Assembly: GCA_010015585.1 (NCBI GenBank)
Contig: ML975166.1
From: Eremomyces bilateralis CBS 781.70
Lineage: Eukaryota
Length of the DNA: 59,090 bases
Strand: one strand, 5' to 3'
Shown: in pieces, positions 26,867 to 34,669 of the stretch
How the letters are laid out: each line of letters opens with the position of its first letter
How positions within the stretch are numbered: position 1 is the stretch's first letter
Program-made: the position numbers and the translations under genes
Notes under the pieces: generated by a model
What the model was told of the DNA's origin: nothing
Databases searched by the model: none
The model's input: only the letters and a program-made list of their open reading frames with translations

Positions 26867-29332
26867 TTATTCGGATTCTTGCATGTCTGACTTTGAAAGC
26901 TCCTGGACCCCAAAGCCGTCCTGGTCAGGTCGCTCCTTTTCGCCCAACGGTTCAAGAGTAGTCCCATCAGCAATGAGCTTCGTTGGACTTGGCGGAACAG
27001 GGCCCATCAAGCTTCTCCGATGTGGTTTCATGTCCAATAGTTCTTCCGTTTCCTCCACATCTTGCTCCTCCTCCCCATTGTCATCCAACGCCGTTGGGCC
27101 TCTATTCTGTGTAATCACTTCTCTCAGTTGGTCAACGAATTCCTTCATATGTGGAAACTCCGAATGCATGCCCGCCACATCGTCCGACCCATATGCCTTC
27201 GTCGCTTGTATGAGAGCGTGGTCTGCTCGTGCATATCGCCCCAACCGTATCCAATGATCCGAAGCCAGCACGTTCCAGAACGCCGCACTCCTCATTCGAG
27301 ACCCGTACCGCAACATTCCAAGGCCTGGTCGCACTGTGTAGCATGCCGCCACGCGTTCCGCTAGTAGCACATGTCCAAGGGGGCCAACAAGGCCTAGTTC
27401 AAGCGCCTTGGATGCCCAAGTGACGGCACTGTCCGCAGCGGCTGTATTGACGGTGACGCGAAGTTTGAGAAGCTCCAGAGCGAGGCAAAGGCATCGTAGA
27501 GCATAATAAGGGGTGGAGCAGCGAGTGATGTAGGAGTATGAGGCGGTATCGAGGAGATTATCGATCGTTTCCAAGCGAAATTTGGAACTGGTGCTCGAGG
27601 TGCTGAGTGAGGACGTTGACGCTGTAGCCACAGGCCCTGAGCTTGGTGTAGATGCGTTAGCGAGCATGAGAGCCGATATCACAGCCATTTCGTTGGCACC
27701 GGCGTGATACTTCCAAGCCTTGTCGTGGGAAAAGTCCTGCCGTAGCAAGTCGTAGACGGAATGTGCAAGCTTGAAGTCACGAAGCATAAAAGCGAAATCG
27801 GCTAGCTTTCGCATGATCGCTTCCGGAGAGTCCGGTCGATAAAAGCCCTGCAAACCATCGTAATTCGAATTCGAATTCGTGCTGCCAAGGGATCCGATGG
27901 GATTGGAGGATGTTCGGGAAGAGCCGAAGGGGGCCCAACGTTTGGAAAGGGACATAAAACGACCGGAAAGACCTCGACGGCGGGAAACGACTTGTTCGTT
28001 CCATAGGGCAGAAAGTCGTTCCATGGAGGGAATAATGGATTGCGTGGCAAGTTCACGAACAAACGTGCGAATGGCGGTCGCGTCCGATTCGAAAATGCAA
28101 GGGGTTGAATCCTCGCCTTCGTATATCGCTTCTAAAGAGGCGGTTAGATTATCCCGGCGCAGGCGGAAGAACGACGTACCTCTTCGCTGGATTTCGGCTA
28201 GTTCTTCACTTGCTGATACCCATTCGCTTGCTGGCAGCCTCAAACTGTCATCATCCGAGGGGACACACTGACTACTCCTCAAGCGAAGGAGGTGGCAATG
28301 TAACCCGAATTTTCGTTTCATTTGCTCGTATAGTGCCATGGACTTCGTGATATCGTCATGATCGTCATCGTGAACCAGGACGTAATATCGAAGATAGTCG
28401 TTATTCACCCACGGCGGCAGTCTCCGCTCCCCCGTATTCGTACTGTCGTATAGTCGACGAAGCTCATCGATCGGGTTCGGGATTCGCGAGCTAATGGCGA
28501 TTACACATGCAACAGGATGTGCAAAGGTTTCATGTGGAGTCATCGGAAATGCGGATAGGAGTCGGCGTAGGTAGAGAGTATAGAAGGGAGAGATGGTGTC
28601 GGAAAATGGAGACTTCGGGTCTGGATAGTCCTCGGGTTGATCGTCCGGTTCCGTTCGCGACTCTGCGAATGCGAGATGTCGGTCGACAAGGTCTTCCACT
28701 TGCGAAATGTCGCCGCCCACCCTTGCGTACGACAGCATTGGTCGAATGGTCTCAGGTGAACCATTGATCGGGTCCATAGTTGCCTCCAGACTTCGTCGTA
28801 TCGGTGGCTTTGGTGCCCCTAGTCCGTCCCTCAGACCAGTAAACCGGAGTCCATATTCTTCCCAACTCCTGCTTGATCCAATACTATCCCGTATCACCAC
28901 TTTCCCCGGGACCTTTTCTCCGAATGGTCGAATGAGTTCGAGGAAGCCTTCTACAAACCCCTTTTCCCGCATCATCTCTTCGGTATCTTCGGATGCAAGT
29001 ACCCCAACGTGCGGTACGAAGGCTCGGAGAATGAGATCTCTTGGCTCGCCTCTCCGTCCCGAAGACGTGGGAGCTGTTTGATCGGAGCCATTGTGACTTC
29101 CCGTAGTCGTTGAGGCGCCAGCGATGACAGAAGGAGTGGGTGTAGCCGAACCCGAGCTGGGATGCGAGGTCGGGAGGGAAGAGGTGGAAGCGAATAGAGA
29201 GGACAGCGACGGATTCGAATGACGGTAGGGAAGAAAGGTGGATGAGGATACCTGTCTAACCCGCGGAAAGACGCTGGAGGATTCTAGGTCTGGGGAAGGT
29301 GATTGCACTGGGCTTTTAACGGGGGAGGACAT
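26867..29332 (-). CDS. TRS85: TRAPP III subunit Trs85 (TRAPPC8); probable in-frame intron 28132-28179
   Basis: HETF.HPVAC.IAISS; YLRYYVLVHD; MKR.FGLHCHLL.L; W.EQV.S.RRG.SGRF; EA.MRKLADFAFML.D.K.A...Y..L..DF..DKAW. Confidence 0.9.
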   Translation of the reverse strand: MSSPVKSPVQSPSPDLESSSVFPRVRQVSSSTFLPYRHSNPSLSSLFASTSSLPTSHPSSGSATPTPSVIAGASTTTGSHNGSDQTAPTSSGRRGEPRDLILRAFVPHVGVLASEDTEEMMREKGFVEGFLELIRPFGEKVPGKVVIRDSIGSSRSWEEYGLRFTGLRDGLGAPKPPIRRSLEATMDPINGSPETIRPMLSYARVGGDISQVEDLVDRHLAFAESRTEPDDQPEDYPDPKSPFSDTISPFYTLYLRRLLSAFPMTPHETFAHPVACVIAISSRIPNPIDELRRLYDSTNTGERRLPPWVNNDYLRYYVLVHDDDHDDITKSMALYEQMKRKFGLHCHLLRLRSSQCVPSDDDSLRLPASEWVSASEELAEIQRRGTSFFRLRRDNLTASLEAIYEGEDSTPCIFESDATAIRTFVRELATQSIIPSMERLSALWNEQVVSRRRGLSGRFMSLSKRWAPFGSSRTSSNPIGSLGSTNSNSNYDGLQGFYRPDSPEAIMRKLADFAFMLRDFKLAHSVYDLLRQDFSHDKAWKYHAGANEMAVISALMLANASTPSSGPVATASTSSLSTSSTSSKFRLETIDNLLDTASYSYITRCSTPYYALRCLCLALELLKLRVTVNTAAADSAVTWASKALELGLVGPLGHVLLAERVAACYTVRPGLGMLRYGSRMRSAAFWNVLASDHWIRLGRYARADHALIQATKAYGSDDVAGMHSEFPHMKEFVDQLREVITQNRGPTALDDNGEEEQDVEETEELLDMKPHRRSLMGPVPPSPTKLIADGTTLEPLGEKERPDQDGFGVQELSKSDMQESE

Positions 29333-29946
29333 GTATGGCGACTTATGGCACCCAACAAAGGGTGATGATTAGGAGGCCGATCCTCGATGATGGATGCGAT
29401 GTTGGAAAATACATGGGTTATGGAGAAGTGATGGATGGGCCAAGCGGAGGTGCGCTGGGGGGAAGAAAGAGGTCAAAGGGCTGCTATCACCCGCAGCACA
29501 TGTCCGATCGATCCCATGCAGAATCTCTCACTATTGAAAGATGATATTCTTACGTTGTTTGCATCTGATGCGCATGGATAGAACATGGTGATCGACTGGA
29601 GGCCGCGAACGCCGGAGAACAGCAAGGGAATATCCCGAAGTTTAGCCGGTGGGAGGTGGCTGATCATCGGGTCGATTGCTGGTTTGCTGTCACGTGAAGC
29701 TGCCGAGAACATATCCCTTAGGTAAGCAGGCGTGGGAGCCTGGTAGGTCTCTCTGCCTGTATGACGCATATCTTCAACAACGGAGTCAACATTCGAGATT
29801 CTGGCACGGAATATTAGTTCAGTACGAGAGCAATCCTATTGAAGCACCTGGACCACGATTCACCAGGACAGCTGAAATGACCAAGTCGACATCTCACATA
29901 CTTAAATGAATCTGCAGTGGAGGTGCTATGAACTGCTGTCCATTTG

Positions 29947-32917
29947 ATGCCACTCCTTGATCGCATCCTTGTCCTTCCACAGAAACGTCGACTTCACCTT
30001 TTCCACTCCTGTAACACTTTTCGGCCCTTTCTAGTACGGTCAACAAGATTTTCGGTTGTATCAATCTGTTTCTCTTCCTCCCGCCTGCCATCAATGACTG
30101 AACATGGCAATGATGATGCGCGTGTAACAAAGAGACAAAAAATCCAGGGCAGCGTGATCGAGAGGACAGCAGACGCAAAGAAACCCTCTGAAATGGCGGC
30201 AATGACGAGTCGAAGAGATTTGGAAATCAAGTTGACAGAAGTCGAGTCGACTTTGGCACGATTCTTCTTGGATGTTGCCCAACACATTGATCAGAATCCT
30301 TCCGGAGAGGTCCCTCATGCGAAAGCAACTGATGATCCCACCATTTTACGCTTCACGGGTGGATGGGTCCGAGATAAGTTGCTGGGGGTTGCTAGCCACG
30401 ATATCGATGTGGCAGTCAACAATATGACTGGCTACCAGTTCGGACTGGTCATGAACCAATATCTGGACATCCCCGGAAAGTCCGAGAAATATGGCCTTCA
30501 AGGTTTGGCTGGGAAGCTCCACAAGATCGCAGCGAACCCCGAGAAATCGAAACATCTGGAAACCACGACGACACGGGTCTTCGGCCTAGACATTGATATT
30601 GTCAATCTACGAAAAGAAACATATGCAGAGGACAGCCGCAACCCACAGATGGAGTTTGGCACCCCTGAAGATGATGCTCTGCGCCGCGATGCGACCGTCA
30701 ATGCCTTATTCTACAATTTGAATACGTCCAAAGTGGAAGATTACACCGGAAGAGGTCTCAATGACATGGAGAAGAAGTTGATCCGTACCCCCTTGGAGCC
30801 TTATCAAACATTCAATGACGATCCCCTGAGAGTCCTTCGACTTATCCGCTTTGCGAGTCGGCTGGACTATGCGATCATACCTGAGGTATTGGAAGCCATG
30901 GCCGATGAATCGATCAAAGCGGCATTACGGCTGAAAATCAGCCGCGAAAGAGTCGGGGTGGAAATTGAGAAAATGCTCAAAGGGCCAAGGCCTTTGATGG
31001 CGCTTAGCTTAATCCATCGACTTGGGCTCTATGGCACGATATTCACCGATCCGACCATTACACCCTCGTGGCGGCCAGATACCCAGAGGTGGGACTCGGT
31101 TTACAACTTTGTGAGCAGCCTTTTGCTGTCGGATGCGGATGAGAAATTGATATCTCTGCGTTCAATCCTAATCCAGAATGAAGAGGATGGGTTCCTTGCG
31201 TGGGTGCTGGCTTGCACCGTTCCGTATCTGGATGCCCCAGAGCCTGCAGCCAACAAAAAGGGCAACAACCCCTCTCACCCTGGAGTATCCGCATTACGTG
31301 AAGGCATCAAGGCTCCAAACAAAGTTTCCGAGGTCACAGCAATTGCATACCAAAACCGCTCGGCTATAAAGGACTATAAGGACGGCCTGTTTATGCAGTT
31401 GAGAAATCCTGCTTCGAGAAAGAGCACGACCGATTTTGCTGCTCGAGATGTTCTTGGTCTGGCAATTCGACGATGGGGCTTTACTTGGAGGAGCCAAGTG
31501 CTTTTTTCCATGCTTGACGAGATCCATTCGGGCACAAGGAGCATCGCCAGTAAGTGCAATTTCCCATCATACTGGACGACAACTGAGGTATAGCGCAGCC
31601 ATTGTTTCCTCCTATGAGGCATTCGTCAAGCACGTAGAATCCTTAGATCTTCTCGACGCATATGCGTTGAAGCCCATCATCAATGGGAAAGCCCTTATGC
31701 AGGCCCTAGGTGGTAAATCAGGACCGTGGCTTCGAGGTGCATTGGACACGGTTATGGCATATCAACTTCGCAATCCCGGGAATGCCGATGCATCCGCGGC
31801 TATCGATGAAATAAAAGCGGCTCGCAGTAGGGACGAACGAGAAACCAGAAACGAGGCGAACAGTGGTGAGCTCACCAGGTCACTTATTCATCATTTTCTG
31901 AGGCTCACAATTCGCTCTTCTTTCGAAAAGCATCTGGCTCCCGAAGTGACCAGTGATGGCCGAAAGAAGCCTTCGAATGCAATCAGATCTTCGAACGACT
32001 ACATCGACGAAGAGAAGGAGAAAAACCTCAAACCCTGGAAGCATGGTGATGGTTTGGCATTGGAGCTGCTGATCTGGTCTGCAAAATCCATCAGAAGCCA
32101 ATGGGTCCAAGATAACTGGGGATTGCTCATACCCCCAATCCTTACCTTGCTCGATGACCATGATACTGGATATAAGATAATTGGATGCGATTGTTTGAGG
32201 CATGTCCTGGAAGTGACCCCGTCGTTACATTTGCAGCAAACAAATTTGGCAAATCTATTCGAAGAGAAGTTGTTGACATGCTTCTATTATCTACCGACCT
32301 CAATTTCGGTCGAAGACAGCTCGAGGACCCTTGCAGCAGCCACGGCAGCGATGGTCCAGCTCATACGATCACGATGGGCAATCGTGGCCAAACCTGATAT
32401 GGACCGACGCGTACAAGCACTAGACAAGCTTCTCCGACAAGGGATCCTCCGGCCATTGGAGCTCGCAGGGGACAATGCAGCGTTTGCCGCCGTATTGTTT
32501 CAAAACATGGCGTCCATTCTTGATGAGATGGAAATCCTGTCTGTCAAGCACATGCAAAACGTGCTTGACCCGATCTGCGGAACTCTTCGCGACCCATTCT
32601 TGCATGCCCACCCCCCTCTCGCGATCGCGACGCTTGAGGCTCTGAGGTCACTCATGAGAAACGCTTGGCCTCGAATTATTCCACACCGACAACAGATTAT
32701 CCGAGGGTTAACGCGTTGCTGGGTCACTTTATGTGAAGACTCGCAGCAACCCTTCAGTAATGAATCGGAACTGAATGCAGCTCGACTGGAATGTAAAGAG
32801 GCCTGGGAGATGTTGTCGGCCATCACGATGCACGGGGGTGTTGATATAGAGGATGAGATCCATGAAATGGTCGAGGCCGACCTAAGGTTGGGCGGTCTTT
32901 TCCAACGCAAGGTGTGA
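29947..32917 (+). CDS. CCA1: CCA tRNA nucleotidyltransferase fused in frame to a C-terminal Tti2-like domain; intron 31550-31598; ~973 aa
   Basis: RFTGGWVRDKLLG..S.DID; EDDALRRD.T.NALFYN; DDPLRVLRLIRF; KISRERVG.E; post-intron tail KP..NGK.L..ALG.K.GPW...ALD....QL..P. The same open frame continues into GRK...KPWK...W.LLIPPILTLLDD...K..GC...YLP, typical of Tti2. Confidence 0.88.
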
Positions 32918-32934
32918 ATCCGAATGAATCTTCC

Positions 32935-34669
32935 TCATTGTGCCTCTGCCAAAGCCGGCAGATCCCTCTCATTCGGATCTAAATGAATATTAGCCATACG
33001 AGCTTGTGCTTCCTCGAGCTCCTTCTCCGAGTTACTCAAGCTTGTAGCCGTTGCTGGACCCGAGGTGTCCGTGATTTTCGTCTGTTCCGCTCCGGACTCT
33101 TTTCCAATCTGGTCCAGGGAGGCCAGGCGTGCTTTCAGCTTCTCTAGCTCCTGGTCGTTTTCTTGGGATTGCTCGACCCCTGCCATCGCTTGGGCCTTCT
33201 CCTCTGCTTTGGTCTTCTCCTCTGCTTTGGCCTTCTCCTCTGCTTTGGCCTTCTCCTCTGCTTTGGCCTTCTCCTCTCCCTCCAGCCGTTCCAACTCATC
33301 CTCTACGTCGCCTTCATCGACGGAGATTTCAGCCTGGCCGGTAATGACGCTCGAAATTTCCCCTGATATGCCCAGTTGTTCCTGAAGGCGGTCCACAACG
33401 TCTTCGACGCCTTCTACCCCACCAACGGCCTTATTGAGACCCTGGAGCGCATTTGTCGAACTCTTCATTGCCCGAACAACTTCCACTTGGGTGGACGCAT
33501 CTTCAATTTGCAAACGAAGGGATTGAAGCTGATGCAGTGTCTCGCGGCGCTTCTCGGCAGAAGATTCGGCTAGTTTTCTTGATCTCAAAGCAGAGAGCGC
33601 CGCGCCTCGGCGTTTGCCTTCAAGCGCCGTGCGCGCAGCCCGTTCATGATGAGAAACCTGGTTCTCAAGCTCGGAAATGGATGGGGAAAGCTTGGAGATA
33701 ATCGTATCAAGCTGCGCCACGGTCACATCAGCCTCATTAATGGGGGGTGGCGGATTGGAGGAGCCTGGCAGGGCAAATTTAACTGTGCTGCTCTCACGCG
33801 AGTAGGTAGCCACCGGAGGATCGGTATCGCGAGACAGATGAAGAATAAGGAGTTCCATGGACAGAGGAGATGGGTGGGGTTTGGAGGAGAGCTTTGATAC
33901 AAGATGAGACAGCGTTGTCGGTGTGAATACGAGCGTTGAATGGTCGTTCCGCAAATGTGCTAGAATTTGTGAAGTCGTGGCCTTCAAAGTCGTCAGCATA
34001 AATCCTGTCTGTAGCCCAAGTCCCAGCCTACCTCGAGGTTTTCTCGAAGGACAAATCTACCCGTTGCGGATGAATGAGTTCCTGACAAATCGGGTACACC
34101 CAATCGTCTCAATCCCCACCGCATCACCTCCCAGGGCGATATACTCCCCAGCCAGCCTGTATTTCGCTTGGAGATATTACTCGTGGCAGAAAGGAACTCC
34201 TCCAAAGGTATAAACACATCGCGTGCGATGGCGTCCGCCTGATATGTCATTAGCAGCCTGTTCCAAGCTAACGACCGTGGAGCTTTATCACGTACAATGA
34301 CATCTCCAAGCCCGGAAGGCCTCCCTAATTCTCTAGTTTCGAGAGCTTTCGCGAGCTTCTCCCCAGACTCCAGTATGTACGTGTCGCTTCCCGTCGCATC
34401 AGTTGTGTTGTTAACCGTCGTTGCCGCTCCAGACTGTCCGGGTAAAGCACCCGCCCGGGCTGCGTGCGCTAACGCGTTTCTCCATGCGTCGAGATTGGCG
34501 GTGTAGCCGTCTGGATTGGCGGTTCGATGGGCGGGAAAATCGGAATATAATGATGCTACTCGTCTCTTGCTTGGAGAATATCAGTACACGCTTTGTAGGG
34601 ATAGAATATGGGGACAAACCTCTGAAACGCCTCCTCATGGGTAAACAGGAAATGGAGTAAATCGGACAT
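32935..34669 (-). CDS. CHM7: CHMP7/Cmp7 ESCRT-II/III hybrid (Snf7 family); multi-exon
   Basis: Exon 1 MSDLLHFLFTHEEAF, then SLYSDF...NPDGY.AN..AW..AL (CHMP7 N-terminus). C-terminal Snf7 helices: AL.ALRSRKLAE...L.QL..L..QIE.A..QVEVV.AM..ST.AL..LN..VGGVE.VE.V.D.L. Confidence 0.85.
33194..33277 (-). repeat. 18-bp coding tandem repeat (~4.7 copies) encoding EEKAKA in CHMP7
   Basis: GCCTTCTCCTCTGCTTTG repeated near-perfectly on the + strand. Confidence 0.92.

Follow-up and report, generated by a model that had tools for sequence, protein, structure and literature searches.

A conserved intron inside coding sequence may apportion one reading frame between CCA1 and a CCA1–Tti2 fusion in Eremomyces bilateralis and its relatives

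How can one reading frame serve two unrelated essential genes when it holds neither a stop codon for the first nor a start codon for the second? The question is raised by a locus of Eremomyces bilateralis CBS 781.70 (Dothideomycetes, order Eremomycetales), lying on a stretch of 59,090 nucleotides (nt) of contig ML975166.1 (assembly GCA_010015585.1), hereafter the window. Here CCA1, the gene for a CCA-adding enzyme, runs in frame into a domain of Tti2, a subunit of the Tel2-Tti1-Tti2 (TTT) co-chaperone, which matures TOR and other PIKKs. The original prediction, made from the letters of the window, read the two as a fusion. We find that a transcript-derived contig carries a second splice at the joint, by which CCA1 is ended and Tti2 is cut off, and that the signals for this splice and the frame across it are both conserved among relatives.

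The genomic frame at this locus is continuous. With intron 1 alone removed, 29947–31549 is joined in frame to 31599 onward and an open reading frame (ORF) of 973 amino acids (aa) runs from the ATG at 29947 to a TGA at 32915–32917; the deposited model P0001 (P152DRAFT_467879, "hypothetical protein"; 888 aa, 100% identical) follows the same fused reading from ATG 30202. Between the CCA1 tail and Tti2 the frame holds no stop and no ATG, and past the joint the first in-frame ATG is at 32351. Pfam finds PolyA_pol (PF01743; E 2.5e-26, 92.9 bits against a cut-off of 23, the whole profile 1–126) in the CCA1 part, the neck domain PolyA_pol_RNAbd (PF12627; E 2.6e-5, 24.3 bits against a cut-off of 22) in exon 1, and Tti2 (PF10521; E 1.6e-55, 189.1 bits against a cut-off of 25.2, profile positions 33–278 of 279) behind them. 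For the truncated Tti2 stretch at 31865–32917 the match is E 4.3e-55 over profile positions 39–278. The P0001 translation carries GGWVRD, then DID, and an RRD motif; GGxVRD...DxD together with RRD we take to be the catalytic motifs of class II tRNA nucleotidyltransferases, and by sequence the CCA1 part qualifies as such a CCA-adding enzyme. Its tail, searched with a profile of 32 relatives, matches solved tRNA nucleotidyltransferases near their chain C-termini (cca2, 9ns4_A, E 1.6e-11; cca1, 9ns2_A, E 4.1e-9), while a 32-sequence profile of the C-terminal part matches human TELO2-interacting protein 2 in solved complexes (9wjy_B, 5e-11; 7f4u_C, 6e-11; 7ole_J, 2.5e-10) over chain residues of about 197–444. 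These matches support the assignment of the C-terminal part as a Tti2 homolog, one in which Pfam profile positions 1–32 and everything N-terminal of them are missing. A Foldseek search of the Protein Data Bank with the predicted tail-plus-Tti2 model returned nothing more specific than importins and ARM/HEAT repeats (best E 3.1e-3) and was uninformative on Tti2.

The one public run that holds the stretch, X1, exists as contigs and is labeled RNA only as a guess. One X1 contig of 3332 nt lies on 29804–33243 in three pieces (29804–31549, 31599–31864 and 31930–33243) with 0 mismatches, skipping two GT..AG segments, namely intron 1 at 31550–31598 and 65 nt at 31866–31930 (cut shifted by +1). Because two exact canonical deletions stand in otherwise identical sequence, we take the contig to come from spliced RNA. 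As 65 is not a multiple of three, removal of the second segment shifts the frame; with both introns removed CCA1 has 631 aa from ATG 29947 or, by codon count, 582 aa from ATG 30094, and its stand-alone stop codon, missing from the genomic frame, is created solely by splicing. In the spliced mRNA the Tti2 frame is severed from any start, and the Tti2 region of about 1 kb becomes an untranslated tail. The transcript form seen splices the 65 nt, and the fusion is therefore not its product. The 3′ part of the contig probably overlaps the transcript of a convergent Snf7-family gene, and a contig over two genes is not proof of a single transcript; X1 contigs also drop rare variants and yield no isoform ratios, transcript starts or ends. 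Much of the original prediction survives these comparisons: the contig skips its 49-nt intron, from GTAAGT at 31550 to CAG at 31598, exactly and with the frame kept; the CCA1 tail does run stop-free through the linker into Tti2, with no intergenic space or separate ATG before it; the motifs that it listed for Tti2 are present, and the identity read from them agrees with PF10521 and the human profile matches; and the Pfam search that it proposed for the spliced product returns both PolyA_pol and Tti2. Its 973-aa polypeptide is not what the RNA contig encodes, which drops 65 nt and gives the 631-aa CCA1 instead. A frameshift near 31830–31870 had been named as evidence that would count against the fusion; the genomic frame proves open there, and splicing at 31866–31930 shifts the frame, close to what had been described.

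The 65-nt segment is at the same time coding sequence. When retained, it encodes 22 residues that form the first conserved Tti2 helix: the Pfam match to Tti2 begins at residue 87 of the exon 2 translation, and in an AlphaFold model of tail and Tti2, whose mean predicted local distance difference test (pLDDT) score is 88.8, the encoded helix spans residues 90–108 at a pLDDT of about 89–96. Because the retained sequence codes for part of the Tti2 domain, the element is an exitron, that is, an intron inside coding sequence; it is a canonical intron within a coding exon and is spliced in RNA, and its retained form is coding and constrained as protein. Its 5′ splice site sits in a Gly codon of which the last base of exon 2 is the first base. 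An "exitron" produced by reverse transcription, an artifact reported in PMC8240250, was ruled out by the canonical GT..AG ends, the conserved synonymous positions and the presence of the splice in three organisms. We likewise rejected reinitiation or frameshifting on the spliced mRNA as a source of Tti2, since the conserved first helix would be missing and the next in-frame ATG comes only at 32351. No conserved RNA structure was found at the exitron, where RNAalifold gave no pairs among 31 sequences and single sequences had a median z-score of +0.25 against mononucleotide shuffles, a rough control.

Relatives were collected by a metagenome contig scan with an alignment of tail-plus-Tti2 proteins, which gave 141 pattern matches, of which 104 were confirmed and the best 80 kept. 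The junction helix is present and in the frame of the CCA1 tail at 79 of these 80 loci, and all 79 are free of stops for at least 78 codons upstream of the junction; in five (L003, L006, L011, L022 and L068) CCA1 and Tti2 stand in a single ORF of about 990–1015 codons. Most relatives have no Met among the 12 residues preceding the helix. The single locus without the helix, L080 (1197 nt), is 75–85% identical to L010. Its positions 1–166 align with L010 945–1110 and its positions 166–1113 with L010 1175–2138, and exactly the 65-nt element (L010 1111–1175) is missing; the CCA1 frame of L080 ends after a shifted tail much like the one predicted for L010, with the Tti2 region in another frame. By its sequence L080 is the spliced form. 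A third case comes from a Logan ORF, P0175 (577 aa, CCA1 domains only), which agrees with the predicted spliced product of L018 end to end, sharing 70 of 77 residues and both the frame-shifted tail and its stop; P0172 terminates three residues past the joint, and the CCA1-only Logan ORFs P0184 and P0186, for which there is no close locus to compare, are compatible with splicing. Since the splice is seen in E. bilateralis, L080 and P0175, it is used in at least three lineages. At about 895–905, in a run of T, L080 is also 1 nt shorter than L010; this gap, probably an assembly or sequencing error, throws Tti2 out of frame close to the conserved NAWPR motif.

The splice signals themselves were compared across the 64 distinct junctions that the 79 loci and the E. 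bilateralis window supply. The 5′ site is GTGAGC in all 64, and an AG occupies nt 64–65 in 61; the 65-nt element closes with AAG in 42, CAG in 19, TCC in two and AAA in one. In the three exceptions at the 3′ site a CAG lies 6 nt further on, as in L024 and L041, or 3 nt before the usual position, as in L005, and the intron length is therefore always 2 modulo 3. A stop follows the predicted splice after a median of 4 codons, after a single codon in 20 of 64 and within 14 codons in 54 of 64. To separate constraint on the nucleotides from constraint on the protein, we examined codon choice in 31 representatives that share less than 85% identity across 78 nt, the background being the codon frequencies of their own downstream Tti2 ORFs. 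The first codon, where Gly, is GGT in 22 of 22 (background 19%), and, where Ser, AGT in 9 of 9 (15%); the Glu codon that follows is GAG in 31 of 31 (56%). At the other end the last codon is AAG in 19 of 20 cases of Lys (59%) and CAG in 10 of 10 cases of Gln (51%). Between them, Leu codon 13 is CTT in 27 of 30 (15%) and Thr codon 14 is ACC in 23 of 30 (27.5%), and the sequence of this pair, GCTTACC, is a likely branch site. Because the Gly/Ser and Lys/Gln swaps alter the residue yet keep GT and AG, the constraint acts at the nucleotide level; the His, Phe, Pro, Arg and other Leu codons of the exitron vary synonymously, and the exitron is therefore constrained as protein as well. From junction to stop, the Tti2 ORF has a median ratio of nonsynonymous to synonymous substitution (dN/dS) of 0.167 (range 0.086–0.331; 56 pairs, not independent), and by this measure it is translated and under purifying selection. 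A constitutive fusion, in which every transcript would encode CCA1–Tti2 as in the deposited 888-aa model and the 973-aa product, accords with the open genomic frame and with the annotation as fused of 26 of 26 named rows that we assign to Dothideomycetes. It is nevertheless hardly credible: the E. bilateralis RNA contig removes 31866–31930 and places the CCA1 stop at 31954–31956, the same splice recurs in L080 and P0175, and the splice signals are frozen at synonymous sites.

The account that we think probable, judging from sequence, is that the spliced mRNA gives CCA1 alone and that the unspliced mRNA gives a CCA1–Tti2 fusion, likely the only source of Tti2. A minority of transcripts would retain the exitron and be translated from the CCA1 start through the linker into Tti2, as a protein of about 890–970 aa. 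This fusion would be the sole Tti2 source in these fungi, the promoter, start codon and first 55–175 or more residues of Tti2 having been lost. Splicing would stay incomplete through signals that are conserved but, against the consensus for such sites, weak, namely a 3′ site that reads AAG in most non-Pleosporales lineages and a branch site of the CTTAC type, and this would set the ratio of CCA1 to Tti2. We favor the fusion as the source because Tti2 has no start of its own, the linker is always open, and any unspliced full-length transcript must give it. Of the possibilities raised in the original prediction, an alternatively processed transcript that supplies two essential proteins fits the data best, and its suggestion of a lineage-wide, uncharacterized fusion agrees with the open frame across relatives and with our finding no paper on it; a coupling of tRNA maturation to PIKK/TOR biogenesis, which it had also proposed, is unsupported here.

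Tti2 might instead come from a shorter transcript that starts in the 3′ part of CCA1 and uses an in-frame AUG of the tail exon, yielding a protein of about 45 kilodaltons (kDa) with a short CCA1-derived leader; the genes would then overlap, and the exitron would merely end CCA1 on full-length transcripts. In-frame Met codons do occur in the tail exon, both here and in most relatives, and metagenome ORF calls give such proteins (P0011–P0018), although these calls are mechanical. An open linker is required in this arrangement too, so that the open frame in relatives does not discriminate. We still consider it unlikely: none of the Met codons is conserved throughout, and of the two commonest positions each is lacking in several relatives and one in E. 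bilateralis; promoter room is scarce, with an intron 1 of just 49 nt and conserved coding DNA upstream; full-length transcripts that escape exitron splicing would still yield the fusion; and the leader would presumably be a fragment of the CCA1 tail domain out of its fold. The linker invites a further explanation, by which the exitron-retaining mRNA is translated and the fusion is then cut in the linker into CCA1 and a free truncated Tti2. Across relatives the linker ranges from about 0 to 60 residues and is poorly conserved, with a pLDDT of 65–77 in the model and basic residues often before the helix, all of which would suit a processing site. No conserved cleavage motif was seen in it, however, and we hold such a polyprotein to be improbable.

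Several points weigh against translation of the retained form as the source of Tti2. The fusion protein is deduced from conservation, with the retained RNA likewise unseen: no X1 contig covers 31866–31930, although contigs lose rare variants and this is no evidence of absence. The metagenome loci are not independent, many being close relatives (64 distinct junctions; 31 representatives). A main isoform with a 3′ untranslated region of 1 kb is unusual. The CCA1 tail exon of E. bilateralis contains two in-frame Met codons, which could provide a separate Tti2 start on a shorter transcript. Protein searches found no second Tti2 in E. bilateralis, with limited sensitivity, and a copy elsewhere in the genome is possible.

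How widely is this arrangement shared, and how did it arise? PF10521 is present in 33 of the 52 proteins found via the tail region. Among named rows, 26 are fused models from genera of Dothideomycetes, an assignment that is our own except for Eremomyces and Bogoriella, and none of the 26 is CCA1-only. A helix beginning G/S-E-L stands directly behind a short linker in 33 of the 37 fused or long proteins checked, the four without it being from Fusarium (two), Colletotrichum and Neonectria; the Ser (AGT) form of the junction is found in Pleosporales genera. Dothideomycetes as a class thus conserve the fused frame, the signals for the splice and the protein sequence of Tti2, with the 22 residues of the exitron included. 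The fused junction recurs in protein models from two Arthoniomycetes, Coniocarpon cinnabarinum and Chrysothrix sp. Because the junction is common to both classes, the fusion predates the split of Dothideomycetes and Arthoniomycetes.

In other classes CCA1 and Tti2 lie side by side as separate genes. The locus tags of CCA1 (P0216) and Tti2 (P0043) in Teloschistes are consecutive, and a rival annotation merges both (P0215, 1070 aa); the merged models of Helicocarpus (Eurotiomycetes) and Fusarium hold a complete Tti2 N-terminus between the two parts. In stand-alone Tti2 proteins (P0043, P0048, P0071), from what we take to be Lecanoromycetes, Sordariomycetes and Geoglossomycetes, the Pfam match begins at profile position 1–2, after 56–175 further residues, and the ordinary CCA1 proteins of fungi with separate genes end 10–15 residues after a conserved AIEEV motif. 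Such models show how the E. bilateralis fusion could be an annotation artifact, two neighbor genes open in frame by chance, since the fused models of Sordariomycetes, Lecanoromycetes and Eurotiomycetes do resemble merged neighbors (Teloschistes P0216/P0043/P0215; Helicocarpus; Fusarium). For the junction described here we give this next to no credence, as all 79 loci keep the frame open, there is no Tti2 start codon, and the Tti2 N-terminal region and profile positions 1–32 are missing. From these comparisons, the history was likely that of a tandem CCA1-TTI2 pair from which the intergenic region and the Tti2 N-terminus were lost, the old Tti2 helix now serving also as an intron. Because the Eurotiomycete Tti2 helix already starts Gly-Glu-Leu, the residues that hold the 5′ splice site may be ancestral. 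Stand-alone Tti2 proteins (P0119 of Helicocarpus, P0043 and P0071) also share a conserved DPW(T/N) motif about 40–50 residues before the junction helix, which is lost in the fused form.

More tentatively, the proposal may be extended to the whole group: Dothideomycetes and Arthoniomycetes would possess Tti2 only as an extension of CCA1, and the rate at which the exitron escapes splicing would set the supply of Tel2-Tti1-Tti2 and hence of TOR and other PIKKs. We regard this broader claim as possible but rather doubtful. Two observations on deposited sequences belong here. A 955-aa CCA1–Tti2 fusion with a Dothideomycete-type junction (P0005) is filed under Quercus suber in the nr database and is probably fungal contamination of the oak assembly. 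The deposited fused models P0069 (Trichodelitschia) and P0042 (Oleoguttula) have the helix missing or shortened, and gene predictors may be inconsistent on the exitron.

How does this element compare with known systems? Exitrons have been described in plants and humans as introns with canonical sites inside protein-coding exons (Marquez et al., 2015, Genome Res, PMC4484396). The CCA1–Tti2 intron resembles them in that it is canonical, coding and stop-free, that both of its flanks are coding and that splicing changes the protein. It differs in that its length is not a multiple of three, so that splicing, rather than deleting a segment, terminates one protein and detaches a whole domain whose origin is another. 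Its conservation moreover spans at least one fungal class, and in the data seen the spliced form predominates. SKI7/HBS1 in fungi is reported as one gene from which a conserved choice of splice forms yields two proteins (Marshall et al., 2013, PLoS Genet, PMC3597508). An ancient, conserved fungal splicing choice by which one gene gives two distinct proteins is common to both systems. SKI7 and HBS1 are paralogous functions of one ancestral protein, whereas CCA1 and Tti2 were joined secondarily, and the choice here is between an enzyme alone and an enzyme plus a chaperone subunit. The fused Tti2 has a helical-repeat domain homologous to that of stand-alone Tti2 (PF10521; 7f4u_C, 7ole_J, 9wjy_B) but is without the N-terminal region, start codon or promoter of its own. 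E. bilateralis CCA1 has the head, neck and tail domains of yeast Cca1 and of S. pombe cca1/cca2 (9ns2, 9ns4), but unlike in known Cca1 its natural stop arises only via splicing. Hypothetical proteins with this architecture, carrying PF01743 and PF10521 in the same open frame, are already in the databases (P152DRAFT_467879, DOTSEDRAFT_46837), and in them the splice switch is unannotated. A full-text literature search gave no paper that links Tti2 with a CCA-adding enzyme or tRNA nucleotidyltransferase, with Dothideomycetes or with fungal alternative splicing. Articles matching Tti2 and intron retention were, by title and the start of the abstract, human-cell studies, and among the matches listed for exitrons in fungi none was a fungal case by title.

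If the proposal is true, two essential housekeeping functions share one promoter and one start codon and are apportioned by a weak intron; on the broader claim, a splicing decision on a tRNA-maturation gene would also be a control point for growth signaling. The class concerned is a very large one, with many crop pathogens and extremophiles among its members. The element is a clean natural fungal exitron, in which splicing makes a stop codon that the genome lacks, probably conserved since before the Dothideomycetes/Arthoniomycetes split. Because all deposited Dothideomycete models seen give the fusion only, the main CCA1 isoform is mis-annotated across the class and Tti2 is seemingly absent as a gene. 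If the fused Tti2 works, its N-terminal third is dispensable and an attached enzyme of 60 kDa is tolerated, which bears on how the TTT complex is built.

Table 1. Features of the CCA1–Tti2 locus, in window coordinates
Feature	Position	Strand	Description
CCA1 exon 1	29947–31549	+	Head and RNA-binding domains
Intron 1	31550–31598	+	49 nt, GTAAGT..CAG (CAG 31596–31598); constitutive
Exon 2	31599–31865	+	Conserved CCA1 C-terminal tail, then variable linker
Exitron (intron inside coding sequence)	31866–31930	+	65 nt, GTGAGC...AAAAG; skipped in X1 contig
Candidate branch site	31904–31908	+	CTCAC, predicted; homologous to the near-invariant GCTTACC of relatives, 23–24 nt before the 3′ site
Shifted tail and stop	31931–31956	+	Eight shifted codons and TGA 31954–31956, in spliced mRNA
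Tti2 domain, N-terminally truncated	31865–32917	+	350 aa and TGA 32915–32917; readable only with exitron retained

The 5′ end of CCA1 offers several starts. Yeast CCA1 can begin at more than one in-frame ATG, and the leader from the first resembles a presequence. At the E. bilateralis locus the frame is open from 29932, with in-frame ATGs at 29947, 30094, 30193 and 30202, and the leader from ATG 29947 is basic and looks, by sequence, like a mitochondrial presequence. Ahead of ATG 29947, and still within the RNA contig, are three short ORFs that begin at ATGs 29877, 29906 and 29928 and span 10, 13 and 10 codons, and by analogy the alternative ATGs and upstream ORFs may serve isoform choice by start site. 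Upstream lies a divergent gene (26867–29368, minus strand) for the Trs85 subunit of TRAPP (PF12739, E 7.9e-148). The CCA1 contig starts at 29804, the bin 29541–29681 is without RNA contig cover, and the interval between the Trs85 gene and the contig looks like a shared promoter region. On the other side the convergent Snf7-family gene (32935–34056, minus strand; PF03357, E 2.7e-22) has its stop 17 nt from the Tti2 stop. It contains five copies of an 18-nt tandem repeat (33188–33277) encoding a Lys/Glu/Ala-rich hexapeptide, within which the RNA contigs break.

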